Positions 7,242 through 57,340 are shown, numbered from the stretch's first letter. The stretch: DNA of 64,000 nucleotides from an uncultured bacterium (GCA_903822075.1 CAIJNK010000004.1:12661-76660); one strand, 5' to 3'. The notes: a model not told the origin generated them from the sequence alone. Translations and numbers: made by a program.

Positions 7242-8594
7242 TTAAAATTCACCCTCGGTTCCCTCCAATCTTTCATCAATCCGGTTCATATCGCGAGGGA
7301 AAATGACGGCCTGACGGACGTTTGGCAGGTTCAGAAATTGCATCACCAACCTTTCCGCGCCAAAAGCAAATCCGCCCTCCGGTGGCACGCCGTATTTAAA
7401 GGCCTGCAAAAACATAGTGATGGTTTTTGGATCAAGATTCCACTCCTTAACATGCTTCTCCAGTTGTTCAAAATTATTTATGCGCCGGCCACCGCTTGAC
7501 AGTTCCCGTCCGCGACAAATCATGTCCAAGCCTTCATTGAATTCTGGTTCAGCTGGATTTGGATAAACGTAAAATGGTTTTTTCTTGGTAGGATAGCCGT
7601 AGACGAACACAAAATCCGAGCCGGTTTCTTTTTTCACTATTTCGCAAATTTCCACTTCATCTTGCGAAGAAAGATCCTTGTCACCCCGGTTATCACGCTT
7701 GTAGGCCTCAAATATTTTCTGCTGGGCCTCACGCAACGACATGGTGGGCGTCTTATCAAGCATGACAGGCAATTCCACCCCCAGTATTTTTAAATGCTCG
7801 GCATTATTCTTTTTTATCTGCTCCAAAATATATTTAATCGTTTTTTCTTCCATATCCCTTATATCAGTCCAGGAATCAATGAAGGCCATCTCGGCATCCA
7901 AAGAAATAATTTCCGTCAGGTGACGAGTAGTGGCGCTTGGTTCGGCGCGGAAAATTTTGTTGACAGAAAAACATCTTTCAAAGGCGCTCATCACAATCTG
8001 CTTGTAGAGCTGTGGTGACTGAGTCAGGTAAGCGGCCTTGTTGAAATAACCGATTTTAAACACTTCTGCTCCGCCTTCTGCGGTGGCAGGGACGATGCAT
8101 GGTGCCTGGAACTCAAAAAAGCTTTCATTTTTCATGATCTCCCTAAAACTATCAATCACAGTCTCCAGAATTTTAAATACTGCCTGGTTTCTTGGGTGAC
8201 GAAGGGTGAGGGCGCGATTATCAAGCTCCGTTATCAAGTCCAGATTAAAGCCATCAGCCGACATGTCAAAAGGTAATGGTGCCGCTTCGGCTAAGATGGT
8301 GATTTTTAAAATTTCGAGCTCAATATTGCCATTCAAAATCCCGGCCTTCTTGTTTCTTTCCGGACGCTCATTCACTTTTCCATTCACTTCCACCACAAAT
8401 TCCTGGCGCAGTTTTTTTCCTTGCTCCAGCGCCTCGGTCTGATTTGGCAAAATAACACCCTGAACAATTCCGGTCATGTCCCGAAAATCCAGGAAAATCA
8501 TTTTCCCCTGATCACGTCTGATATTCACCCAACCCTTGATCATAACCTCCTCCCCTACTTTTGTGCCCAATTCTTTTATATATGTTCTTTTCAT
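7242..8594 (-). CDS. aspS: aspartyl-tRNA synthetase, archaeal/eukaryal type (class IIb), possibly non-discriminating
   Basis: N-terminal OB fold; motif 2 FRAEPSATTRHLTE, motif 3 GGFAFGAERLVMQFLNLPNVRQAVIFPRD; FKYGVPPEGG is typical of archaeal-type AspRS rather than AsnRS; Asp-like T-box specifier upstream. Confidence 0.6.
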   Translation of the reverse strand: MKRTYIKELGTKVGEEVMIKGWVNIRRDQGKMIFLDFRDMTGIVQGVILPNQTEALEQGKKLRQEFVVEVNGKVNERPERNKKAGILNGNIELEILKITILAEAAPLPFDMSADGFNLDLITELDNRALTLRHPRNQAVFKILETVIDSFREIMKNESFFEFQAPCIVPATAEGGAEVFKIGYFNKAAYLTQSPQLYKQIVMSAFERCFSVNKIFRAEPSATTRHLTEIISLDAEMAFIDSWTDIRDMEEKTIKYILEQIKKNNAEHLKILGVELPVMLDKTPTMSLREAQQKIFEAYKRDNRGDKDLSSQDEVEICEIVKKETGSDFVFVYGYPTKKKPFYVYPNPAEPEFNEGLDMICRGRELSSGGRRINNFEQLEKHVKEWNLDPKTITMFLQAFKYGVPPEGGFAFGAERLVMQFLNLPNVRQAVIFPRDMNRIDERLEGTEGEF

Positions 8595-18907: not shown

Positions 18908-18984
18908 TGGTGGGTAAGACGGGACTTGAACCCGTAACCCTTGGTTCCACAAACCAATGCTCTAGCCAATTGAGCTACATACCC
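18908..18984 (-). tRNA. tRNA-His (anticodon GTG), CCA encoded, no encoded G-1, apparent A73
   Basis: Cloverleaf folded by hand: acceptor GGGTATG/CTTACCC (one U-U), D-arm GCTC-AATTGGCTA-GAGC, anticodon arm TTGGT-TTGTGGA-ACCAA, T-arm ACGGG-TTCAAGT-CCCGT, then A-CCA; 10 nt downstream of hisS. Confidence 0.7.
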
Positions 18985-18994
18985 ACAAAGGAAC

Positions 18995-20377
18995 TCAAAC
19001 CAATCTGGCTCGAATGCTAGCAATTGCCTCCTCGATTGTCAAGGAAACCTGACTTTTGTCCGAAGTATCCTTGAGACTTACCACGTTCCTCGACACCTCA
19101 TCGGGACCAGCAATGATCACAAAGCGTATACCCCTTTTAACGGCGTATACAATCTGTGCCTTGAATGAAACCGGCTCCCCGACATAGACTTCTGTCTTTA
19201 TGCCTTGATCGCGCAATTTTTCTCCAAGTGCCATGGCAGACCCTGACAACCCTTCGTTGAAAACGGTCACGAGAACATCTGCCGTAGCGGTCGTCTTTGC
19301 AACCAGACCCTTGCTTTCAAGAGCGATAAGGATGCGATCCACACCAACTGAGGCGCCGACCCCAGCGATGTTTGAACCAGGAACAAATCTGTTGGTTAGA
19401 CCATCAAATCTGCCGCCAGAAAAAACACTGCCTAGGCCGTCGACATCAGTAATGTATGTCTCAAAAACCGGTCCCGTGTAGTAATCCAAACCCCTCGCCA
19501 CAGACAGATCAAACGACCAGAATTCCCGTGGCACGCCTAGAAAATCCAGATTACTGATCATACCCTTCATTGTGGTCAAGCCCTTATCTCCACTTTCGCT
19601 TTTCCCTCCAATGATTTCAGTGACATCACTAAGGACTAGCTCCGGATCATTTTCTCGAATCGAAAGAAATCTTCTCAGAAGATCGATCTCTGTTGCGCCC
19701 AAAGGCTTACCTACGCCTTGGAACTCATACGGAGATGCGAGCTCAGAGACGACCCCGTCCAATCCAAGACGATCGATTTTATCAATCGTCCGGAACAGAT
19801 TCTTGTCAGTGATGTTGTAACCCAGAAGCTCCGCAACAGTATTGAGAATCCTCCTGTCGTTGATCTTGATGTTGAAACGGTCAAAACCGAGAGCCTTGAG
19901 CGTCTTGTACATCACCAACACAATTTCGGTATCAGACCAGACTGATCGCGAACCGATAGTGTCAATATCGAATTGCAGAAATTCCCTGAAGCGGCCTTTC
20001 TGCGGTTTTTCACCGCGCCAGACCTTACCCACCTGATACCTCTTGAAAGGTTTCGGGATGTTTGGATATGCTGCAACGACTCGCGCTAAGGACACTGTGA
20101 GATCGAATCTTGAGGCAAAATCCTCCTCCATCAACGTTTCTCCAGCATCCTCAGCGCCAGTTTTGATGCGCGACGTAAAGATGCTCTTGGTGAATTGCTC
20201 GCCTCCAGTCAACACCTCCAACTTTTCCATTGCGGGGGTGTCCAATGGTAGGAAACCAAATGACTCGTAGATTGCCCGTATCTTATCAAGGGCAGCCTGG
20301 AGAATTATCATCCTTTCGGGAAGATAATCTTGGAATCCCGCCAACGTTACCGGTTTAATTGTCCTGTTTTCGTTCAT
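18995..20377 (-). CDS. hisS: histidyl-tRNA synthetase
   Basis: 460 aa class IIa aaRS; HisRS N-terminal block (…FQDYLPERM…, ESFGFLPLDTPAMEKLEV…); anticodon-binding domain; GC above window average. Confidence 0.85.
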   Translation of the reverse strand: MNENRTIKPVTLAGFQDYLPERMIILQAALDKIRAIYESFGFLPLDTPAMEKLEVLTGGEQFTKSIFTSRIKTGAEDAGETLMEEDFASRFDLTVSLARVVAAYPNIPKPFKRYQVGKVWRGEKPQKGRFREFLQFDIDTIGSRSVWSDTEIVLVMYKTLKALGFDRFNIKINDRRILNTVAELLGYNITDKNLFRTIDKIDRLGLDGVVSELASPYEFQGVGKPLGATEIDLLRRFLSIRENDPELVLSDVTEIIGGKSESGDKGLTTMKGMISNLDFLGVPREFWSFDLSVARGLDYYTGPVFETYITDVDGLGSVFSGGRFDGLTNRFVPGSNIAGVGASVGVDRILIALESKGLVAKTTATADVLVTVFNEGLSGSAMALGEKLRDQGIKTEVYVGEPVSFKAQIVYAVKRGIRFVIIAGPDEVSRNVVSLKDTSDKSQVSLTIEEAIASIRARLV

Positions 20378-25664: not shown

Positions 25665-26291
25665 ATGGAGAAAATACAAGTATTGATGATTCACGGTGGT
25701 ATGACTTTCAAAAACAAAAAGGACTATTGGAAGTATTTGGGTGTCAAAAGACTTGGTTTTGAAAAGAAAATCAGCTGGACAGGGGACTATATTGATAAGG
25801 CTTTGGGTAATAGATTTGAAATGATCAAACCGCGCATGCCTCAACAAGATGATGCTAAGTATACTGAATGGAGGATCTATTTTGAACGACACCTTCCATA
25901 TTTAAGAAATAACTATATTCTCATTGGTACCTCACTTGGCGGTATTTTCTTGGCCAAGTATCTGTCCGAACATAAACTACCTGAAAAGGCATTGGCGACA
26001 TATTTAGTCTGTCCACCTTTTGACGACAGTCATTCGAATGAAGATTTAGCTGGCGGGTTCAAACTTAAGTCGGATATTTCAGCCCTTGAAAATAACTCAA
26101 AAAAACTTTGTCTGATGTTTTCTGCGGATGATGAATGTGTTCCGATTTACCATGCCGAAAAATATCGGGGGAAATTACCAAATGCCAAAATTATGATTTA
26201 TAAAAACAAGAAAGGACACTTCAGGGTATCAAGGTTCCCTGAAATCGTACAACTGATCAAAGAAGACGCCAGGAAAGCCTTAAAAGCTTAG
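25665..26291 (+). CDS. alpha/beta-hydrolase-fold serine hydrolase (YdeN/RBBP9-like)
   Basis: Starts …VLMIHGG; nucleophile elbow GTSLGG; about 200 aa. Confidence 0.5.
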   Translation: MEKIQVLMIHGGMTFKNKKDYWKYLGVKRLGFEKKISWTGDYIDKALGNRFEMIKPRMPQQDDAKYTEWRIYFERHLPYLRNNYILIGTSLGGIFLAKYLSEHKLPEKALATYLVCPPFDDSHSNEDLAGGFKLKSDISALENNSKKLCLMFSADDECVPIYHAEKYRGKLPNAKIMIYKNKKGHFRVSRFPEIVQLIKEDARKALKA

Positions 26292-26300
26292 AAAGTAGAC

Positions 26301-26744
26301 TTACAGAAACCTCACTGTATCCGAGAGCAACGCGCCATGATTCAAATCAATCTGCACTTGCTTTGGCAATATTATTCGCGAATCATTCGTTCCAATCCAA
26401 CAAATCTCCACCAGTTCATCCCTATGTGTACCGCCAAGTTTGCTTATATCCAGAAAATCAGCCGAATTCAGGACTTCAAAGAAGAACTCGATAGATTGTT
26501 TTCCTTCCCCGTTTTCAATCGTAAGGTTGTTAACATATAAAAGTCTTCCAACTCTTGGTTCAATGCCCAATTCCTCAATAATCTCCCTCTTAAAACAGTC
26601 CATGACCCTTTCACCCCATTCTAGGTGTCCACCCGGTAAGGCATAAAAGTTCGCACCGACATAATGCTTTACGGCCAAAAGCTTGTTATCGTAAAGAATT
26701 ATTCCCCGACAGCGGACAATTATTTCTTTATTTAATTTAATCAT
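26301..26744 (-). CDS. NUDIX hydrolase
   Basis: Complete Nudix box G(HLEWG)E-RVMDCFK-REIIEELGI. Confidence 0.8.
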   Translation of the reverse strand: MIKLNKEIIVRCRGIILYDNKLLAVKHYVGANFYALPGGHLEWGERVMDCFKREIIEELGIEPRVGRLLYVNNLTIENGEGKQSIEFFFEVLNSADFLDISKLGGTHRDELVEICWIGTNDSRIILPKQVQIDLNHGALLSDTVRFL

Positions 26745-41159: not shown

Positions 41160-43070
41160 TCACCTCGATCTGCATAATACGCAAGTCAATACAGCCTTGA
41201 TACGTCTGACTCCAGCCGAAACCGCTTCTTCTTTGACAATTTTAAAGTGACCAAGCTCGGAAGTATTGGAAACATGTGGACCGCCGCAGAACTCGGCGCT
41301 GAAATCATCGATTTTGTAGACTTTGACGACATCGCCATACTTGGACAAATCAAAAGACAGGGTGGTGACGATTTTCTTGGCCTCCTCTTTCGGCAATTCC
41401 ATCATTTGCACTGGAATTTTTTCGGCGATTTTTTCATTAACCAGATCTTCCACTTTTTTAATCTGCTCCGGCATTAATTTCTCCGGCCAATTGAAATCAA
41501 ACCGCATTCTTTCCACGGTGATATTGCTTCCCTTCTGGACAATTTCCCCACCCAATACTTTTCGTAACGCACTCAACAGTAAGTGAGTGGCTGTATGATA
41601 TTTGGTCTCAATTTCTCCTGTTCCAGCCAACCCACCCTTGAATTTTTGTTCGGATCCAGCTTTGGAAATGGCTTGGTGTTTTATATATGCATTTTTGGCC
41701 TCTTTCATAGTTTGCTCATCAAATGCTAATCCCCATCCAGACATAATCTCTTGTGATATCTCAATCGGAACCCCATACGATTGATAGATATTAAAAATTA
41801 TTTCCCCATTCACCCGGATTACATTTCCAGTAATAACCGTACCTGGCGGTAAATTTTCTGGATCTATACCACCAATAGCTGAGTTAAATATCTTTTTTAA
41901 TGATTGTATACCATCTCGTAGTGTTCTTCTAAACTTTTCATCCTCATTTTTAATCACATCCAAAATCTCATTTTCTTTGACTAAAAGGATTGGATAAGCA
42001 TATGAAAGTTCAGCTATAGCCGCTTTGGCAATGTTTAAAATTTCTTCATTTTTTATGCCTAGCTGATCAATATATCTGATGGCCCGGCGTAAAACCCTAC
42101 GCAAAACATAACCGGCTTCCGTATTTGAAGGCGTAACACCATCAGAAATAATCATCACGGCTGAACGAATATGGTCAGCCACAATTCTCTCTGCTTTTTC
42201 ATCACGCTTAATTGCGAGTCTCTTGATTAAACCTAAAAGAGACTCAAAAATATCCGTCTCAAATACATTTTCCTTACCCTGCATTACCACCGTAGTGCGT
42301 TCCAAACCCATGCCTGTGTCTACGTTTGGTTTGGCTAGCATTTCATACTTACCATCGGCGGTCTTATTAAATTCCATGAACACGTTATTCCACACTTCAA
42401 TCAATCGGCCTGACTTCACCAAATCTGCAAATTTGCCTTCCAACTTTCCACCTTTTTCTTCACCTAGGACATCGTAAAACATTTCTGTATCTCCTCCACA
42501 CGGGCCAGTAGCGCCGGCAATCCAAAAATTGTCATCTTTGCCCAACGGCAGGATTCTAATTTCACCTTTAATGTATTCGTCGTCACCAGAAACTTCCGCC
42601 TCAATGCCATGCTTGGCAAAATTTTCTTTCCAAATCCTTATTGAATCATTATCTCGCGGAATTCCATCCTCACCCTTGAACACGGTCATGTAAAACCTAC
42701 TGGGATCCAAACCTAGCCCTTCTTCTTTACTTGTCAGGAATTCAAGACTCCAAGCTATAGACTCCTCTTTGAAATAATCTCCAAGTGACCAATTACCCAT
42801 CATTTCAAAAAATGTGCAGTGGCGATTGTCACCCACATCATCAATATCCCCGGTTCGAACGCATTTCTGCACATCTACCAATCTCGTACCAGCCGGATGC
42901 TTGGCACCAAGCAAATATGGCACCAATGGCTGCATGCCAGCCGTGGTAAAAAGAGTACCTTTGTCCGGAATATCATAATTGGCCGGCAACAAAGAAGCTG
43001 AAGGTATTACTTTATGCCCTCTTTTTTCAAAAAATTTCAAATACCGTTCGCGGATTTCTTGGCTTTTCAT
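41160..43070 (-). CDS. alaS: alanyl-tRNA synthetase, short form (catalytic, tRNA-recognition and editing domains; no C-Ala domain)
   Basis: FFEMMGNWSLGDYFK class II motif; editing-domain HTATHLL and CGGPHV; ends about 40 aa after GVRRIKAV; start at MKSQEIRERYLKFF. Confidence 0.85.
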   Translation of the reverse strand: MKSQEIRERYLKFFEKRGHKVIPSASLLPANYDIPDKGTLFTTAGMQPLVPYLLGAKHPAGTRLVDVQKCVRTGDIDDVGDNRHCTFFEMMGNWSLGDYFKEESIAWSLEFLTSKEEGLGLDPSRFYMTVFKGEDGIPRDNDSIRIWKENFAKHGIEAEVSGDDEYIKGEIRILPLGKDDNFWIAGATGPCGGDTEMFYDVLGEEKGGKLEGKFADLVKSGRLIEVWNNVFMEFNKTADGKYEMLAKPNVDTGMGLERTTVVMQGKENVFETDIFESLLGLIKRLAIKRDEKAERIVADHIRSAVMIISDGVTPSNTEAGYVLRRVLRRAIRYIDQLGIKNEEILNIAKAAIAELSYAYPILLVKENEILDVIKNEDEKFRRTLRDGIQSLKKIFNSAIGGIDPENLPPGTVITGNVIRVNGEIIFNIYQSYGVPIEISQEIMSGWGLAFDEQTMKEAKNAYIKHQAISKAGSEQKFKGGLAGTGEIETKYHTATHLLLSALRKVLGGEIVQKGSNITVERMRFDFNWPEKLMPEQIKKVEDLVNEKIAEKIPVQMMELPKEEAKKIVTTLSFDLSKYGDVVKVYKIDDFSAEFCGGPHVSNTSELGHFKIVKEEAVSAGVRRIKAVLTCVLCRSR

Positions 43071-43163
43071 AGGGTAAAATATAACACAAAGCCGGTTTTT
43101 CGCAAAGAAAAACCGGCGGGATTGCTCCACGCCGGTTAATTTACCTTCTTTTTCAACAAGATC

Positions 43164-50388: not shown

Positions 50389-53300
50389 TCACCGGCACCC
50401 CAACGCCCCCTTGGCCGCCACCACCTTATTTGCCGGTATCACGTCAATGCTAATCAAAAGATCAATAAACTGACAGACTGAAACAGAGGGTTGAGTGGCC
50501 ACTGTTTCCTGCTTCAAGATATCATTAACATACTTAATGGTACCCAGACCAAAGACACCAGTACCTTTGGTGACACCAGCGGGTTTGAGGATTTCGTTGT
50601 AATGAGCAGTCTGGAAGCGGATGAGAGCGAGTCTGGTGGCATCATTGAAGTAAGTGGTTTCGTGATTAGGAGAACTGGTACCGGTGGTGGCAATGATGAA
50701 GTTATGAGTGTTAAGGAAGATTTGGAGTTGTTTGATGTCGGAATCAGTGGTATAGGGATTTAGGATATGGGTGAAGAGGAAGGGAGGGGCGGAGGTGACG
50801 GTGGCGGTAAAGGTAGAAGTGGCCAGGGTGGAAGTAGCGGTGGTGGTGGCTAGGGGTTTGGGGATGACTGGTGGCGGAGTACCGCCACCACTGCTACCTC
50901 CTCCGCCCCCTCCGGTAGGAACATATGTACAAGTTTGTGAGAGGACGGGACTGCCGCCTGTACAACCATCCGGTGACGAAGTGACTACGGTGTGACCTTG
51001 AGTTCCCGAAACAGGACAGACAGCCGGAGACCAGGCAGAGTAGGTGAAGGAGGTGCAAGTTTGGGGAGTGGGCGGAATTTCGGTTTTTGATATTTGATAA
51101 ATGTGGACTTCACCCGGCATAAATGAATCGCTGAAAGCGCCGCCAGTCATATTTATTGTTCGGTTGCTTTCACCATAAACATTAACTGTTTTATCGGCCA
51201 GATCGGAAACATTAAAATTAACACTAGTGGATGTGCCGGACATTTCACCAATCTCGCTTAATCTGGTGGCAAAAATCCAAATATCCGAATCGGTTTCTTT
51301 TATCATGGTGTCAACCCGGTTACCATCGGCATTTGCATCATCCGTAACCGCGTGAGTTGAGTTTGAACCCAAAACGGCGGGCGCTAATGTCTGCATATCG
51401 GTAACAAATTGTGAAATAACAGCGGCGTTGTCTGTTGGGATGTCAATCCAATTATTATTTATGGAATCATAATTATACCAACTTATTCCCTTCATGCCAT
51501 GGATAACATTTAACCATATCTCCATTTTTAACAACTCTGGCGTCAAATGAGGCTGGGTCGAAGACATATCACAAGCCTCCACAAATGAAGTAAAAGGGGT
51601 TAATCCAAAATTATTTTTTTGGAATTCATCCATTATGGAAGTATACTGGCTCATCGTCATCTGAGTGTCTCCATTGCTTGCCCAAACGGGATAAACGTCA
51701 AAAGAAAGAATATCAGCCACAGGCTCCAAAGAAAGATAGCCTTTAGTCTTTGTGACGTCCGGAACGTAGCCGTAAAGATTAAGAATGTTTGGATGATTTG
51801 GATCGTTCACATGAGAGATGGCAGTATACAAGTCCATTAAAGCCGGGGTATAAAAAGAAGTTTTAAGATCCGGCTCATCCGCCCAAGTCCAGAATAGAAG
51901 TGACTGATTATTTCTAAATGTCGAAGTGTACTGCGCGATTGTATTAGGCGCATTTGTCGTCAGGTAATTTGGATATCTCGAGTCCGGCCCAAACGTTTTT
52001 ACGCCAAGGCCAGAGACTGTCTGCAAATAACTTGTAAACTCGTTCACTGAATAGTTTGCGGACCATAACGGGTTCCAGCTCGCCACGTTAATCAGATTAG
52101 CCGCCAACATGCCTGAAAGTTTATTTGTATCAGGCGGATAGAACAAGCCAACCGGAAAAATCTTCACACCATTGCTCAATAAATTATTATCCTTATCTAT
52201 GGAGACGAAAGGGGTTCCCGAAACATATTTTGTTAAAGTGGTTGTAGCACTGTACTTTTCAGTGTTCTGACTATCCAAAAGTTTTACAACTAAAGAATGA
52301 TCACCCACCGACAGTGGGACCATGTCTACGGCAAATTTTTCCCGGCCGACTAAATTTGAAATTGTTATATACAGTAAACCATCAAGTGAAGCGACTATCG
52401 TGTCGCCGGTCGAATACCCAGTCAAAGCCAAATCGATATAAAGTGAAGAATGAGCAAAAGAATTAGCGTGACGAATATTAATAAAAGAAGACTGGTCGAC
52501 AATCGGACTGGCGCTAAATGCCGTATCGTCAAAATAAATTGTTCCTCCGTTACCAACCTCAGAACCAGTTTTGTCCATCCCCATCACGAAACGGCTGATA
52601 TTGCCAATTGTGGCATTTATCATGGAAATTTCCGTATTACCGTTAATTTTAGCTGTGAATGCACCCGTTCCGGTTCCGGTCTGATATTCTATGTCCAACG
52701 GATACCAATGCCCACGAATCAAAGGTGTTGCCACGGAAGCGCACGCTCCGCCGGTGGCAAGGCAAAAAGAATCGGCATTTATTTTGTTTAAATAAATTTT
52801 TTTCACAGAGTTATAACTACCATCTTCTAAATTCAGAAAAACAATTTTTGGAGAACTGGCATTGCCCAAGACGAAATCATTGCCTAAATAAAAATAAATT
52901 TGCGCATAGGCGTGCGGCCCGAAGTATTCGTTCTGGTAAAACCAGGCTTTATTGCTTGACGCAGGACTGACTTGCGTGATTGCTGAGTATAATCCGGAAT
53001 GGGCCACAACAGTACTGACCGAGATTACACCAGTACCTGACTGACCGGTATATGATAAGTTTGGTAGATCTCCAACCTCAAAATCTTCATATAATAGTGG
53101 CTTACTGCCATCTGGTATAAAATTGGCAATAATATTTTTATTTGAACTCATGGTTAAGGCTAAGGGATTTTTTGTGGTAGCAACATCTCCTGACCAGGAT
53201 GAAAAGATATAACCGCTCGCGGGCGTGGCCGTCAAGGTGACGGTATCGCCAAAGGCATAAGTGGTGGAAGCCGAGGAATTATCTATCGTTCCATTGGCGG

Positions 53301-53850
53301 CTGAAGTGTTGAGCGTGTAGATGGGATTACCTTGGTCAAAGGCAAAGGCGTCGGCGTAAACATAATTGGTGGTACTGCCGGTTCGAATCAAGGCATATTC
53401 ATCGTCGGTACCGGCAAAGTAATAATTGCCGAGCAGATTCCACTGCCGGCCGTTTGCGCTTTCGTCCACCATGACGGTGGTTGTGGTGGCGTTGTGGACA
53501 ATATCCACTGGCGTATTGGTGGCGGCCTGGCTGGCAGCGGGATAATTTATGTAGACATTGTAATTGCCGGCGGTAGTAATGTGAGAATTGAATTTGACAG
53601 TGGAGGTACCTTTGTTGGTATTCTTATCATGAAGATAGTTGGCGCCGTAATAGCCTAAACTGTAAGTACTTGTTGCCCAGTTGCCAATAATGTCTCCAGC
53701 CGGTATATCGGAATTATCCACCATAATGGGGGTGCTGGTGACGGTGTCAGCGTGGACATGGGAGATGGTTTGAGAGTGAAAAGAAGAAAGGAAGAAAAAG
53801 ATAAAAGAAAAAGAAAGAAAAGTGAAGGAGAGAAATTTGAATAATTTCAT
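50389..53850 (-). CDS. large secreted/surface protein (1153 aa): signal peptide, Ig-like repeats, putative glycoside-hydrolase-like TIM-barrel region, Gly/Thr/Ser-rich linker, C-terminal peptidoglycan-binding (PG_binding_1-like) domain
   Basis: N-terminal MKLFKFLSFTFLSFSFIFFFLSS; FWTWADEPDL / ISWYNYDS blocks; GGGGGSSGGG-TPPPV linker; C-terminal …DIKQLQIFLN…ATRLALIRFQ…. Confidence 0.5.
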   Translation of the reverse strand: MKLFKFLSFTFLSFSFIFFFLSSFHSQTISHVHADTVTSTPIMVDNSDIPAGDIIGNWATSTYSLGYYGANYLHDKNTNKGTSTVKFNSHITTAGNYNVYINYPAASQAATNTPVDIVHNATTTTVMVDESANGRQWNLLGNYYFAGTDDEYALIRTGSTTNYVYADAFAFDQGNPIYTLNTSAANGTIDNSSASTTYAFGDTVTLTATPASGYIFSSWSGDVATTKNPLALTMSSNKNIIANFIPDGSKPLLYEDFEVGDLPNLSYTGQSGTGVISVSTVVAHSGLYSAITQVSPASSNKAWFYQNEYFGPHAYAQIYFYLGNDFVLGNASSPKIVFLNLEDGSYNSVKKIYLNKINADSFCLATGGACASVATPLIRGHWYPLDIEYQTGTGTGAFTAKINGNTEISMINATIGNISRFVMGMDKTGSEVGNGGTIYFDDTAFSASPIVDQSSFINIRHANSFAHSSLYIDLALTGYSTGDTIVASLDGLLYITISNLVGREKFAVDMVPLSVGDHSLVVKLLDSQNTEKYSATTTLTKYVSGTPFVSIDKDNNLLSNGVKIFPVGLFYPPDTNKLSGMLAANLINVASWNPLWSANYSVNEFTSYLQTVSGLGVKTFGPDSRYPNYLTTNAPNTIAQYTSTFRNNQSLLFWTWADEPDLKTSFYTPALMDLYTAISHVNDPNHPNILNLYGYVPDVTKTKGYLSLEPVADILSFDVYPVWASNGDTQMTMSQYTSIMDEFQKNNFGLTPFTSFVEACDMSSTQPHLTPELLKMEIWLNVIHGMKGISWYNYDSINNNWIDIPTDNAAVISQFVTDMQTLAPAVLGSNSTHAVTDDANADGNRVDTMIKETDSDIWIFATRLSEIGEMSGTSTSVNFNVSDLADKTVNVYGESNRTINMTGGAFSDSFMPGEVHIYQISKTEIPPTPQTCTSFTYSAWSPAVCPVSGTQGHTVVTSSPDGCTGGSPVLSQTCTYVPTGGGGGGSSGGGTPPPVIPKPLATTTATSTLATSTFTATVTSAPPFLFTHILNPYTTDSDIKQLQIFLNTHNFIIATTGTSSPNHETTYFNDATRLALIRFQTAHYNEILKPAGVTKGTGVFGLGTIKYVNDILKQETVATQPSVSVCQFIDLLISIDVIPANKVVAAKGALGCR

Positions 53851-53908: not shown

Positions 53909-56900
53909 CTAATCGGTAATCAGCGCCAAGATCCTTTCCTTGAGAAACAGTTTCTTTTTTACCTGCTTGCCCGCAAGCCACTTATAAACATCTTCCCGAG
54001 CGAGGGCTACTTTCTCCACTTCCGCCTGGTTGGAACCGACGGGCATTTCAAAGTTAGCGCGCGGCTTGCCATTTATTTGAACGATAATAACCACCTTCTC
54101 CGAAATTGTTTTTTTCTCATCATATTCCGGCCACTTCTCCAAATGAATAGATTTTTTATGACCAAGATTAGCCCAAATTTCTTCCGTCATATGTGGTGCA
54201 AACGGCGCCAATAATTTTAGAATAGTTTCATATTCTGTTTTTGTTATCTCATTTTTTTCGGCCAAATTGACCAAAATCATAAAGGCCGAAATAGCGGTAT
54301 TAAAACTGAAGTCTACAATATCCTCAGTCACTTTTTTTATTGTTTTATGAAGTAGTGCCTCAAATTCAATGTTTTCAACCACCCTTTTGTTTACTACCCT
54401 ATCTTGTAACTTCCAAACTTTTTCCAAGAAACGGCGTGAGCCCACCATATTATCAGTACTCCAAGCAATTTCCTGATCAAACGGACCCATGAACATTTCA
54501 TAGACGCGTAAGGTATCCGCCCCCACATTTTTTATCACTTCATCAGGGTTTATGACGTTCCCCCAGCGCTTGCTCATTTTACGTGAATCCGAACCCAGAA
54601 TCATTCCTTGATTTTTGAGCTGCCTAAACGGTTCTTTCTCACTGACCACACCTATGTCAAATAAAAACTTATGCCAAAAACGCGCATAGATAAGGTGCCT
54701 AGTGGCGTGTTCAGTTCCACCCACGTACAAGTCCACGCCATTTTTCATCCAGTATTTTTCTTTCTTTTTATCCACCAACGCTTTACTATTTTTCGGATCA
54801 ATATAACGCAAATAGTACCAGGAAGAGCCGGCCCATTGAGGCATAGTGTTAGTCTCTCTTTTGGCTTTGCCTTTACAATTTGGGCATTTAGTATTTACCC
54901 ATTTGGAAATAGCCGCCAAAGGCGATTCACCGGTCCCCGTCGGTTCGTAAAACTTTACATTTGGCAATTCCACCGGCAAATCTTTCTCCGGTACGGGCAC
55001 CGCGCCGCATTTCTCACAGTGAATAACGGGAATTGGTTCGCCCCAATAACGCTGACGGGAAAACACCCAGTCCTTCAGTCGATACGTCACTTTCTGCTTA
55101 CCGTCAGCCAAATCGGTAATTTCTTTTTTTGCCTCCTCACTATCCATTCCGTCAAAATTCCCAGAGTTTATCAGAATCCCTTGACCAGTAAAGCATTCTG
55201 AGCCGGTTTTATAGACTTGCCACATATATTTAAAGGCTTCAAGATTCAACCAGCCTTCCATTTTATCGGCCTCTATCCAGACAGCTTTGTGATTTTTTGT
55301 TTCCGCTTCCGTGGTAGGTATTTTTTTGTCATCAACAAGTTCAAACAACATTCCCCGTCCAATGCCATATCGGTTTACATCTTTATGGGCGGCAAAAAAA
55401 TGATTATGCTGCTCACCGCCAAGCTCACGGATGTATTTCACGTTAACGTAACCGGTTTCCTCACGGATCTCACGAAGGGCAGCAGCTTGAAAACTTTCAC
55501 CGTCGTCCAATCCACCAATTATGCCTGAATGCCAGCCAAACTTTTCCCAATCCAGGCACAAGAATTTATTTGTCTTTTTATCCATGACCAAGGCATAGGC
55601 GGTGGTTCTTCTGACCGTCTCTTTATCCGACCGCGCCTGGTCTCTATCTTTCTCTGATTTTGTAAAATACGGAACAACCACTTCTTTGACCGGCAAATTA
55701 TATTTTTTGGCAAAAGAATAATCCCGTTCATCATGCGCCGGTACGGACATAACGGCACCGGTACCGTAATTATTCAAAACATAGTCCGCAATAAAGACTG
55801 GCAAAATTTCTTTAGTCAGCGGATGTTTGGCCTCCACACCAGATAGCCTCAAACCAGTTTTGTTCTTATCAACAGCCGTTCTTTCTATTTCCGTTTTTGC
55901 TTTGACACTCTCGCGATATTTTTCCACTTCCGCCCAATTTTTAATCAGCGGCTTCAAGCTGTCCACCAGTTTATTTTCCGGCGCGAGCACCACGTAAGTG
56001 ACGCCAAACAAAGTATCGGGCCTAGTCGTAAACACCCTTATTTTTTCCTCGGAATTTTTTAGATTAAACCATAACTCCGAACCTTCACTCCGACCGATCC
56101 AATTTCTTTGCGCTTCTTTTATGGACTCAGACCAATTCAAGAGTGGTTTTGGCCAACCTAAATTGGGATCCTTAAGCCGTTTCAGCCAGATTGGTAATTC
56201 GGAATTGACCATTTTGCCGGGGACAAAATCTTTTTCTTCAACCCAAATAATTTCGTTATCCTTATCTTCACCATCGGCAATTGGCGCTCGCTTGTCACTC
56301 TTTAATTCAAAATACGCCGCCTGAGCATAGGCGATTCTATTTTCTCCCTTATGTTTGGTATAATAATGGGCTTCGGTCTGTCCGCCCAAAAGGCGCTTAA
56401 ATTCAATATCAACATAACCAGTCTCCTCCTGCACTTCCCTTCTGGCCGTTTTGACAACATCTTCTCCAGCCTCAATACCGCCAATAATAACCGTATCCCA
56501 GCCAAACTTTTTATTACGAATAATCAGATATTTTTTATTTCTTGGATCAAAGACAATGGCGTGCGCAACGTAACGCTTGACCAAAGGCTTACCGGGTTGA
56601 TGCGGGTTCACCTTATCAATCACTTTCGGCATGATGTAATCTTCTGAATCAAGATCGGCTAAAAGTCGGTCGGCATAGTCGGTAATTTTGAGCACCCACT
56701 GGCGCATCGGTTTTTTTTCCACTAGAGTACCACACCGTTCACAGTTGGGACCGTCTAAATCTTCATTGGCCAACCCGGTCTTACAGGAAGGACACCAGTT
56801 AATGGGTTCAAAGCTTTCATAGGCCAAACCCTTTTTAAGCAGTTGCAGAAAAATCCACTGGGTCCACTTATAATAGTTTGGATCTGTCGTGTTTATCTCT

Positions 56901-57295
56901 CGCTTCCAGTCGTACCCCAAACCGATTATGGACAATTGCTCCTTGAAGCGTTTAACATTTCGCTCCATCGCCACCGCTGGGTGGATTTTATTCTTGATTG
57001 CATAATTTTCCGCCGGTAACCCAAATGCGTCCCAGCCCATGGGGTGGAGAACATTATAACCATGCATCCTTTTGTATTTTGAATACACATCGGTCGCAAT
57101 ATAACCGCGCGGATGACCTACATGTAGGCCGTCGCCGGATGGATATGGAAACATATCTAGGACGTAAAACTTGTCACTCTTGGATTTATCCTTAGTTTGG
57201 TTTATCTTTTTTTTGTCCCAAATTTTGCGCCATTTAGGTTCAATTTTTAAATGATTATATTCCCCATTTTTTGAGGTTGTTTGTTTCTTTTTCAT
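53909..57295 (-). CDS. leuS: leucyl-tRNA synthetase carrying two inserted NUDIX-hydrolase domains
   Basis: HIGH (HVGH), zinc-knuckle CPSCKTG…CERCG, CP1 editing (…TTRPDTLFGVTYVVLAPE…), KMSKS (KMSKRWGN). Two extra blocks each carry a perfect Nudix box: G(GIEAG)E-DVVKTAR-REVQEETGY and G(GLDDG)E-SFQAAAL-REIREETGY. Confidence 0.9.
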   Translation of the reverse strand: MKKKQTTSKNGEYNHLKIEPKWRKIWDKKKINQTKDKSKSDKFYVLDMFPYPSGDGLHVGHPRGYIATDVYSKYKRMHGYNVLHPMGWDAFGLPAENYAIKNKIHPAVAMERNVKRFKEQLSIIGLGYDWKREINTTDPNYYKWTQWIFLQLLKKGLAYESFEPINWCPSCKTGLANEDLDGPNCERCGTLVEKKPMRQWVLKITDYADRLLADLDSEDYIMPKVIDKVNPHQPGKPLVKRYVAHAIVFDPRNKKYLIIRNKKFGWDTVIIGGIEAGEDVVKTARREVQEETGYVDIEFKRLLGGQTEAHYYTKHKGENRIAYAQAAYFELKSDKRAPIADGEDKDNEIIWVEEKDFVPGKMVNSELPIWLKRLKDPNLGWPKPLLNWSESIKEAQRNWIGRSEGSELWFNLKNSEEKIRVFTTRPDTLFGVTYVVLAPENKLVDSLKPLIKNWAEVEKYRESVKAKTEIERTAVDKNKTGLRLSGVEAKHPLTKEILPVFIADYVLNNYGTGAVMSVPAHDERDYSFAKKYNLPVKEVVVPYFTKSEKDRDQARSDKETVRRTTAYALVMDKKTNKFLCLDWEKFGWHSGIIGGLDDGESFQAAALREIREETGYVNVKYIRELGGEQHNHFFAAHKDVNRYGIGRGMLFELVDDKKIPTTEAETKNHKAVWIEADKMEGWLNLEAFKYMWQVYKTGSECFTGQGILINSGNFDGMDSEEAKKEITDLADGKQKVTYRLKDWVFSRQRYWGEPIPVIHCEKCGAVPVPEKDLPVELPNVKFYEPTGTGESPLAAISKWVNTKCPNCKGKAKRETNTMPQWAGSSWYYLRYIDPKNSKALVDKKKEKYWMKNGVDLYVGGTEHATRHLIYARFWHKFLFDIGVVSEKEPFRQLKNQGMILGSDSRKMSKRWGNVINPDEVIKNVGADTLRVYEMFMGPFDQEIAWSTDNMVGSRRFLEKVWKLQDRVVNKRVVENIEFEALLHKTIKKVTEDIVDFSFNTAISAFMILVNLAEKNEITKTEYETILKLLAPFAPHMTEEIWANLGHKKSIHLEKWPEYDEKKTISEKVVIIVQINGKPRANFEMPVGSNQAEVEKVALAREDVYKWLAGKQVKKKLFLKERILALITD

Positions 57296-57301
57296 ACCCT
57301 T

Positions 57302-57340
57302 ATACTACATCAAAAAACACCGCCAAGCAAAGCTGATGGT
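57302..57340. terminator. bidirectional terminator between leuS (start) and the upstream membrane-protein gene
   Basis: aaaaaacacc-(16 nt loop)-ggtgtttttt. Confidence 0.6.

Follow-up and report, generated by a model that had tools for sequence, protein, structure and literature searches.

Two in-frame NUDIX modules in the leucyl-tRNA synthetase of an ultrasmall Patescibacteria bacterium belong to a recurrent, synthetase-associated subfamily

The DNA analyzed here, referred to as the window, is a stretch of 64,000 nucleotides from an uncultured bacterium (GCA_903822075.1, CAIJNK010000004.1:12661-76660). We noted that its leuS gene encodes a leucyl-tRNA synthetase (LeuRS) into which two NUDIX-hydrolase modules are inserted in frame (Table 1). 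The open reading frame (ORF) scored 983.5 bits against the model TIGR00396 (leuS_bact), for which the curated equivalog cutoff is 548.4. Pfam domain analysis of the whole protein revealed the class I catalytic, LeuRS editing, and anticodon-binding domains, together with two stretches matching the NUDIX family PF00293. The ORF is a complete, canonical bacterial LeuRS, and its host is an ultrasmall Patescibacteria bacterium. At ~268 amino acids (aa) above the length of Escherichia coli LeuRS (860 aa), the protein agrees with the excess of about 270 aa given in the original prediction, an earlier reading of this DNA; compared with its nearest insert-less orthologues, which are 796 to 799 aa long, it is ~330 aa longer. 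No second leuS was found within the 64-kb window, and promoters and terminators inside leuS were not above the shuffled expectation.

Table 1. Features of the leuS gene and other genes of the window (positions counted from the first nucleotide of the window)
Feature	Position	Strand	Residues	Remarks
leuS ORF, LeuRS with two NUDIX inserts	53909..57295	(-)		single uninterrupted ORF, 1128 aa plus stop
N-terminal part of catalytic Rossmann fold with ZN-1 region	56603..57295	(-)	1-231	includes HVGH
NUDIX module 1 (A-type)	56141..56602	(-)	232-385	leader strand KVIDKVNPHQPGKPLVKR
Nudix box 1	56414..56482	(-)	272-294	GGIEAGEDVVKTARREVQEETGY; R286 E287, E290 E291
CP1 editing domain core	55622..56140	(-)	386-558	PF13603, 216 bits; aligned to T. 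thermophilus 210-362
NUDIX module 2 (B-type)	55181..55621	(-)	559-705	PF00293, 45.5 bits alone
Nudix box 2	55448..55516	(-)	594-616	GGLDDGESFQAAALREIREETGY; R608 E609, E612 E613
CP1 end, second Rossmann half (KMSK), anticodon-binding and C-terminal domains	53909..55180	(-)	706-1128	
ORF of 477 aa	61113-62546	(-)		no Pfam match at E<=1e-5
Gene directly downstream of leuS	50389-53850	(-)		1153 aa; signal-peptide-like N terminus, Golvesin_C, Flg_new_2, Gly-rich stretch
AlaRS	41160-43130	(-)		only 656 aa (catalytic domain plus tRNA_SAD)
ORF of 444 aa	38397-39731	(-)		no Pfam match at E<=1e-5
Standalone NUDIX gene	26301-26744	(-)		PF00293, 49 bits
Alpha/beta-hydrolase	25665-26291	(+)		208 aa; GTSLGG nucleophile elbow, weak Abhydrolase_1 match
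HisRS	18908-20377	(-)		followed immediately by tRNA-His(GTG)
Class IIb Asp/Asn/Lys-type synthetase	7242-8594	(-)		

Both class I signatures of the synthetase are intact (HVGH at residues 58 to 61 and KMSK at residues 906 to 909), and both columns are invariant in a 55-sequence alignment (A1). Also invariant in this alignment are the CP1 editing motifs TTRPDT (residues 423 to 428) and GTG (residues 511 to 513) and residues D522 and D525, all of which we take to match the catalytic editing residues of the E. coli enzyme. Judged by these motifs, the synthetase parts of the protein look fully functional. In an AF2 model of the whole LeuRS (pLDDT, 88.2; pTM, 0.76), both inserts were predicted to be well folded, and the top solved-structure matches of the model in a Foldseek search were bacterial LeuRS. 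All LeuRS segments align with the solved enzymes of Thermus thermophilus (1H3N and 2BTE) and E. coli (4AQ7 and 5OMW), with an E value of 4e-205 to 1h3n and Foldseek TMt values of 0.73 to 0.82, and the HIGH, KMSKS, CP1, anticodon-binding, and C-terminal domains are common to them. The difference lies in the inserts, which are ~168 and ~160 aa long. The alignment with T. thermophilus LeuRS falls into four blocks and places insert 1 between residues 208 and 210 of that enzyme and insert 2 between residues ~362 and 377; no solved LeuRS has an insert at either site.

Compared with insert-less orthologues, insert 1 covers approximately residues 218 to 385 (starting at position ~56642), with '...LLADLD' and LNWSESIKEAQRNWIGRSEG as its flanks, and insert 2 covers approximately residues 541 to 700, flanked by 'LPVKEVV' and ECFTGQGILINS. 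At site 1, the insert separates the helix that follows ZN-1 from the strand leading into CP1. Site 2 falls in a CP1 surface loop near the domain exit, and with these boundaries insert 2 therefore interrupts the Pfam editing-domain model, approximately at position 159 of its 185. The original prediction had placed the two modules on either side of CP1, and the peptides that it used as landmarks were found at residues 232, 396, 558, and 706; its flanking arrangement holds, but module 2 does not sit strictly after CP1, as had been stated. Each excised insert was recognized by PF00293 when analyzed alone (54.0 bits for insert 1 and 45.5 bits for insert 2, against a gathering score of 21.1). The Nudix box (GX5EX7REUXEEXGU) is perfect in both modules, with a chance expectation of ~1e-5 for a protein of such composition, which bears out the claim of two complete NUDIX domains. 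Further inspection of the primary structure revealed that both modules keep the subfamily motifs [FY][FY]AxHKxxNR, FEL, and E..H..W. When module 1 was modeled alone, the predicted structure (pLDDT, 92.8) contained the NUDIX alpha/beta/alpha fold.

Several origins of the inserts were considered and rejected. Modules 1 and 2 are 40% identical to each other but 78 to 86% identical to modules of other LeuRS, which excludes a recent internal duplication; by this measure they are distinct members of a single family, and both are old. The standalone NUDIX gene of the window was rejected as a source, its likeness to the inserts being confined to the box region. This gene, which the original prediction had listed as a third NUDIX, is real but belongs to a subfamily other than that of the inserts. 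An intein or homing element was rejected as well: there was no Hint/intein or homing-endonuclease domain, and the only Pfam families found were those of the synthetase and of NUDIX.

The original prediction had also raised the possibility of an assembly chimera at the insert junctions. This was rejected, since a contig in ENA (L001) is 100% identical to the window over 6351 bp across all four junctions and GC content is even across leuS. In addition, the identical architecture, with one module before and one after CP1, was present in 19 other clusters, and related architectures were present in more than 100 independent clusters (NCBI, JGI, ENA, and Logan). With an uninterrupted ORF besides, there is next to no chance that the architecture is an artefact of assembly or of a miscalled ORF. 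The first 74 nt of the ENA contig (L001:1-74) mismatch the window at ~57260-57333, upstream of both inserts, and the gene call there therefore starts differently, giving 1124 aa rather than 1128 aa. This mismatch is probably a contig-end artefact.

The distribution of the modules was assessed in the 120 best LeuRS matches from a 5.8-billion-sequence collection, a ranking that favors NUDIX-bearing proteins and so gives no estimate of prevalence. One to three NUDIX modules were carried by 103 of the 120, at the same two sites as in the LeuRS of the window (the query). The few homologues with names are each a 'leucine--tRNA ligase' of Candidatus Paceibacterota or Patescibacteria. If each architecture is written as the number of copies before and after CP1, and the query and an identical copy (P0001) are counted, then (0,1) was the most frequent, with 54 proteins, followed by (1,1) with 21, (0,0) with 17, (2,1) with 13, (1,0) with 11, and (2,0) with 5. 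In a scan of contigs for inserts, most matches were to a generic peptide pattern of LeuRS, and only ~10 insert-bearing loci were obtained. This revealed NUDIX-bearing LeuRS also in metagenome-assembled genomes (MAGs) labeled Clostridia, Bacillota, and 'Gammaproteobacteria' (L004, L006, L009, and L007). In the Clostridia MAGs the post-CP1 insertion has exactly the same boundaries as in the LeuRS of Patescibacteria. The cores of L004 and L006 are 74 to 80% identical to insert-less Clostridia LeuRS, so the Clostridia label looks right and the insert is lineage specific there. In some relatives, NUDIX is not the only addition: a Ser_hydrolase/alpha-beta-hydrolase domain occurs just past the QRNWIGRSEGAE strand, and the C-terminal half may carry a HAD_2 domain or a Ser_hydrolase domain.

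The Nudix box was perfect in 120 of the 156 modules. Among the others, a degenerate variant recurs in which E7 is replaced by Q and R15 by A and in which the metal-binding ExxEE is still kept. This box (GGxExGQTxExAAxAEIxEETGY) was seen embedded, as the second pre-CP1 module of P0010, P0014, P0017, and others, and the same module type was also found free-standing (P0214, P0219, and P0221). The degenerate module may be an inactive partner or one of altered specificity. Imperfect boxes in 36 of the 156 modules, among them this type with its free-standing copies, would also fit a noncatalytic role, with the NUDIX folds sensing ligands or serving as appendages for structure or tRNA binding, in the manner of NrtR or of the C-terminal NUDIX-like domain of MutY; indeed, the regulators NrtR, AraR, and NadQ, as well as MutY, were among the structural matches. 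Given that both query modules and the large group with perfect boxes retain the complete motif, and that the degenerate types keep ExxEE, we find such a role very hard to credit.

The cores nearest to the query, which are 82 to 87% identical to it, vary widely in their modules. Some (P0027, P0028, P0041, and P0046) are without any NUDIX, the insert-less cores being 82 to 84% identical; P0002 and P0003 have a B-type module only; and P0004, with a core 87% identical, nevertheless carries two modules of other types that are 31 to 39% identical to those of the query. Replacement of one module type by another between near-identical cores is clear from these comparisons. Module 2 is 78 to 80% identical to the post-CP1 modules of P0002, P0003, P0005, and P0006. 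The relatives of the A-type module of the query (72 to 86% identity) sit in LeuRS with cores only 59 to 69% identical. Over 595 pairs, A-type identity was 0.71 to 0.76 across host core identities of 55 to 85% (r = 0.36), and the query was on the trend. With so flat a trend, strong constraint combined with repeated loss is inseparable from horizontal spread for this module type; horizontal acquisition of the A-type module by the query in particular was rejected as not demonstrable, the query pairs following the same trend. In one genome (L011), an A-type module occupies the post-CP1 site. Overall, the sequence comparisons identify the modules as cassettes that are gained, lost, or replaced faster than the LeuRS core diverges.

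Gain, loss, and replacement on so short a time scale, as exemplified by P0004, would be compatible with a role in conflict or detoxification, in which fast-turnover hydrolases degrade nucleotide-type inhibitors of aminoacylation or toxins, like synthetases with a protective accessory domain. Several hydrolase chemistries on the same proteins and the presence of the module across phyla and domains of life also fit such a role. NCBIfam has a curated model for an IleRS containing an N-acetyltransferase domain (NF040702), so there is accepted precedent for accessory catalytic domains in synthetases. We nevertheless regard this role as improbable. No defense or toxin genes were seen beside leuS here, the known adenylate-mimic inhibitors offer, by established chemistry, no diphosphate that a NUDIX enzyme could cleave, and the A-type modules are strongly conserved rather than diversifying.

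The subfamily is narrow: a profile of the two inserts, compared with 1.84 billion cluster representatives, gave only 568 matches at an E value of <=1e-3 and 223 at <=1e-10. The best 150 of the 568 representatives comprised 110 LeuRS or LeuRS fragments; the remaining 40 were short free-standing proteins, tandem-NUDIX proteins, fragments, and one full-length prolyl-tRNA synthetase (ProRS; P0212). No nonsynthetase host was seen among those of the top 150 that were inspected, which included part of the other 40. P0212 scored 585.8 bits as a proS_fam_I ProRS (cutoff, 437); its module separates the anticodon-binding domain from the C-terminal domain. The module of ProRS by itself gave no matches in a word-indexed search, and a search with the full-length ProRS returned four more clusters (P0270 to P0273) of the same architecture, at 61 to 74% identity. 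The nearest insert-less relatives of the module-bearing ProRS are named Nanoarchaeota or Woesearchaeota, and the hosts are probably DPANN archaea.

The free-standing proteins are 154 to 186 aa long and begin with a leader ('hxxF....P....P.V.R') that corresponds to the linker segment into LeuRS, so the whole small protein was inserted. The gene neighborhoods of seven free-standing members were examined. Only 2 bp separate the end of P0147 from a leuS that follows it, and in two NCBI assemblies 3 bp separate the end of P0234 from the following leuS, which has no insert; the latter pair is the fusion in split form. The start of P0171 is 13 bp downstream of argS, with an ileS-like gene carrying a His_Phos_1 insert after it, and P0164 lies two genes upstream of a module-bearing proS. 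The other three adjoin fpg/mutM and a SpoU methylase gene (P0141), a Sua5/YrdC gene (P0221), and another NUDIX gene (P0214). Four of the seven are thus within two genes of an aminoacyl-tRNA synthetase gene, for which a rough estimate for a random gene is ~10%. The fusions in LeuRS and ProRS and the separate gene upstream of leuS constitute a Rosetta-stone link between this NUDIX subfamily and the aminoacyl-tRNA synthetases. The functional link between NUDIX and synthetase suggested in the original prediction is strengthened in this way, with members of the same subfamily in DPANN ProRS and beside leuS, argS/ileS, and proS.

Further features of these neighborhoods were noted. The IleRS-like class I synthetase at L086:5094-8498 (Logan SRR36607724), which has tRNA-synt_1, Anticodon_1, and DUF5915 domains, carries the inserted His_Phos_1 domain at residues 523 to 675 (106.9 bits), and its gene follows closely on argS and on a free-standing gene of the NUDIX subfamily. 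In contig L089, a free-standing copy and an ORF for a 225-aa P-loop kinase-like protein lie just upstream of the module-bearing proS. A PRPP synthetase gene is found near the module-bearing proS in both L085 and L089.

The neighborhoods also bear on the possibility that the inserts are hitch-hiking housekeeping NUDIX enzymes, of the MutT/NTP-pyrophosphatase or ADP-sugar type, lodged in permissive loops of an essential and steadily expressed protein and uncoupled from aminoacylation. One free-standing member is located 4 bp past fpg/mutM, and another belongs to a gene cluster that also encodes a thymidylate kinase, a dUTPase, and a further NUDIX; the best structural matches include MutT, MutT1, NudI, and NUDT15. 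Relatives also contain hydrolases of other kinds that act on small molecules (Ser_hydrolase, HAD, and His_Phos_1), and the genome of the query itself has a separate alpha/beta-hydrolase beside a separate NUDIX. Opposed to this are the hosts and the neighbors: all hosts identified in the top 150 are synthetases, synthetase genes are nearby more often than the rough expectation, and the fusion is shared by two synthetase classes that are unrelated to each other, and by two domains of life. We therefore see simple hitch-hiking as possible but doubtful.

Both modules of the query are apparently catalytically competent NUDIX hydrolases. We tentatively favor the reading that they are active pyrophosphohydrolases positioned beside the synthetase, where they would remove dinucleoside polyphosphates or related adenylate by-products at source. 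Aminoacyl-tRNA synthetases are the main source of diadenosine tetraphosphate (Ap4A) and Ap4N, through the reaction of aminoacyl-AMP with an NTP, and NUDIX Ap4A hydrolases cut Ap4A and Ap4N to ATP and AMP (PMC13627108). The modules would act next to the synthetase as Mg2+-dependent enzymes, and their likeliest substrates would be Ap4A, Ap3A, and Ap4N, formed when ATP or another NTP takes the place of tRNA at the enzyme-bound aminoacyl-adenylate. Asymmetric cleavage would return ATP and AMP at the site of production. The outcome would be less build-up of alarmones and cap precursors and a saving of adenine nucleotides in organisms that depend on salvage. The presence of two unlike modules may widen the substrate range or allow them to pair as a pseudo-dimer.

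Comparison with solved proteins is consistent with this reading. The best profile matches were AvrM14 (7e-9), the Enterococcus faecalis MutT/nudix protein 2azw (8e-9), lupin Ap4A hydrolase (1e-7), and Aquifex Ap4A hydrolase (2e-6). For the model of module 1, the structural matches (scores in parentheses) were RppH and YmfB (14.4), the Ap6A hydrolase Ndx1 (14.2), DDP1, the diadenosine polyphosphatase Rv2985, and AvrM14 (14.1), and lupin Ap4A hydrolase (13.5), with MutT, NudI, and ADP-ribose pyrophosphatases scoring slightly lower than the polyphosphate-acting matches. The ranking is too flat to indicate a substrate, and it leans to enzymes that act on polyphosphate chains. An aromatic residue (Tyr) ~16 to 18 residues past the box is reportedly a mark of asymmetric Ap4A/ApnA hydrolases, as described by Dunn et al. 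in 1999. The modules have Y311 Y312 and F633 F634 at 17 to 18 residues past their boxes, in an [FY][FY] column that is conserved in alignment A3, a feature that is not diagnostic alone. Relative to the single-domain NUDIX hydrolases 2AZW (E. faecalis, function unknown), Aquifex 3I7U, lupin 1F3Y/1JKN, Ndx1, RppH, and AvrM14, with which they share 14 to 24% identity, the modules are distinguished by motifs of their own (HKxxNR and the N-terminal leader strand) and by being embedded in a synthetase. A MutT-type model (OxoGTPPhMutT1Mycb) gave 20.4 bits against a cutoff of 475, and the similarity to MutT/8-oxo-dGTPase is one of general fold only.

Other observations weigh against the removal of Ap4A-type by-products. 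The RppH models (PRK00714) gave at most 39.8 bits, against cutoffs of 116 to 259, for embedded and free-standing members alike, and NudB gave at most 39.0 bits against 103; no curated NCBIfam equivalog cutoff was reached. The neighborhoods with fpg/mutM, dUTPase, and thymidylate kinase fit nucleotide sanitation, and ArgRS, whose gene is one of the neighbors, is not known to form an adenylate unless tRNA is present. Degenerate boxes (E7 to Q and R15 to A) occur in a sizeable minority of the modules, and the Ser-hydrolase, HAD, and His-phosphatase inserts of relatives are not explained by Ap4A clearance alone. The original prediction had further suggested that the modules might clear adenylate. 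In leucyl-adenylate (Leu-AMP), the acyl group is attached to the phosphate of a nucleoside monophosphate, and the compound is not of the nucleoside diphosphate-X type; because it is without a diphosphate linkage, its hydrolysis by a NUDIX enzyme is chemically unlikely.

The RppH models, weak as their scores are, were the best NCBIfam matches, which would be compatible with an RppH-like pyrophosphohydrolase acting on RNA or tRNA ends. Such an enzyme might strip a 5'-triphosphate, Np4A- or NAD-type caps, or a tRNA 3' pyrophosphate, with CP1 placing the modules by the acceptor end. The top Protein Data Bank profile match, AvrM14 (E value, 7e-9), is reported to remove mRNA caps. The domain flanked by the modules binds the CCA end of tRNA, and free-standing members adjoin SpoU methylase and Sua5/YrdC genes, both of tRNA-modification families. 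In addition, the lineage of the ProRS hosts is DPANN, to which belongs Nanoarchaeum equitans, an organism reported to lack RNase P and to have tRNAs with a 5'-triphosphate. We consider activity on RNA ends unlikely, however, with every RppH score far under the curated cutoffs, no RNA-binding extension evident, and the ProRS module, which follows the anticodon-binding domain and precedes the C-terminal domain, at a great distance from the acceptor end. Our preferred, if tentative, reading remains that of pyrophosphohydrolases acting on dinucleoside polyphosphates.

The remainder of the window was also surveyed. All 36 ORFs of at least 250 aa are on the minus strand, as is the only tRNA, and an Rfam scan of the window found tRNA-His only. 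No NUDIX insert was present in the AlaRS, HisRS, or class IIb synthetase of the window. The gene downstream of leuS contains local GC peaks of 0.50 to 0.58 at 50600-51050 and 53150-53750. The alpha/beta-hydrolase gene is one of the few plausible plus-strand genes; it is convergent with the standalone NUDIX gene, at a distance of 10 bp. Its product shares 28% identity (E value, 5e-12) with the inserted Ser_hydrolase domain of the LeuRS P0073, so the two kinds of domain that are built into LeuRS in relatives are present here as adjoining separate genes.

A full-text search, with most subscription journals outside its coverage, found no paper in which LeuRS or ProRS with NUDIX inserts are described. 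The original prediction had known of no description of the architecture, and the literature searched contained none. The architecture is not rare: the inserts are common in the LeuRS of Patescibacteria in public sequence collections, where they have precomputed, automatic Pfam NUDIX hits, so the LeuRS described here is one of many such and is not unique. Such commonness in databases had been named in the original prediction as a ground for taking the architecture as less novel. The LeuRS of Paceibacterota and Patescibacteria and the ProRS of DPANN archaea in these collections, annotated as synthetase only, have modules of the same family, and the sites in LeuRS are the same. The query differs from the public NUDIX-bearing LeuRS in pairing an A-type with a B-type module, the nearest cores lacking one or both or carrying other types. 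The architecture resembles the IleRS-GNAT fusion (NF040702) and the NMN adenylyltransferase/Nudix fusion (NF003786) in joining a nucleotide-using core to a domain that modifies small molecules. Unlike these, in which the host or domain is another or the fusion is terminal, it consists of two internal in-frame inserts that vary as cassettes. What is found here is a canonical synthetase joined with a canonical hydrolase fold, a combination that recurs, is mobile, and is undescribed.

A broader interpretation is that a synthetase-dedicated NUDIX family moves as an in-frame cassette among the LeuRS of Patescibacteria and Clostridia and the ProRS of DPANN archaea. This may perhaps be part of a wider, undescribed habit of ultrasmall symbionts, in which extra hydrolase sites (NUDIX, Ser-hydrolase, HAD, and His-phosphatase) are built into class I and class II synthetases to give multi-enzyme machines that would destroy or recycle nucleotide by-products of aminoacylation, or repair tRNA ends, at their origin. 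We put this forward as a speculative proposal, one that could well prove wrong. To our knowledge, it is mainly in eukaryotes that aminoacyl-tRNA synthetases have been described as acquiring catalytic domains, and those of bacteria are considered stable in their architecture. In the present case, two extra hydrolase sites that are apparently active are part of an essential synthetase of a bacterium, and a NUDIX subfamily is tied to synthetases in three ways: by fusion to LeuRS and ProRS, by operon-like adjacency, and by recurrence across bacteria and archaea. The turnover of the cassettes constitutes a natural experiment on the insertion of domains into essential enzymes. A role of the modules on tRNA ends or inhibitors would make the finding even more unexpected. 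If the modules hydrolyze Ap4A-type compounds, this LeuRS would be the first synthetase known to us with built-in disposal of its own alarmone side product, and it would offer a route into the nucleotide economy of CPR bacteria and DPANN archaea.

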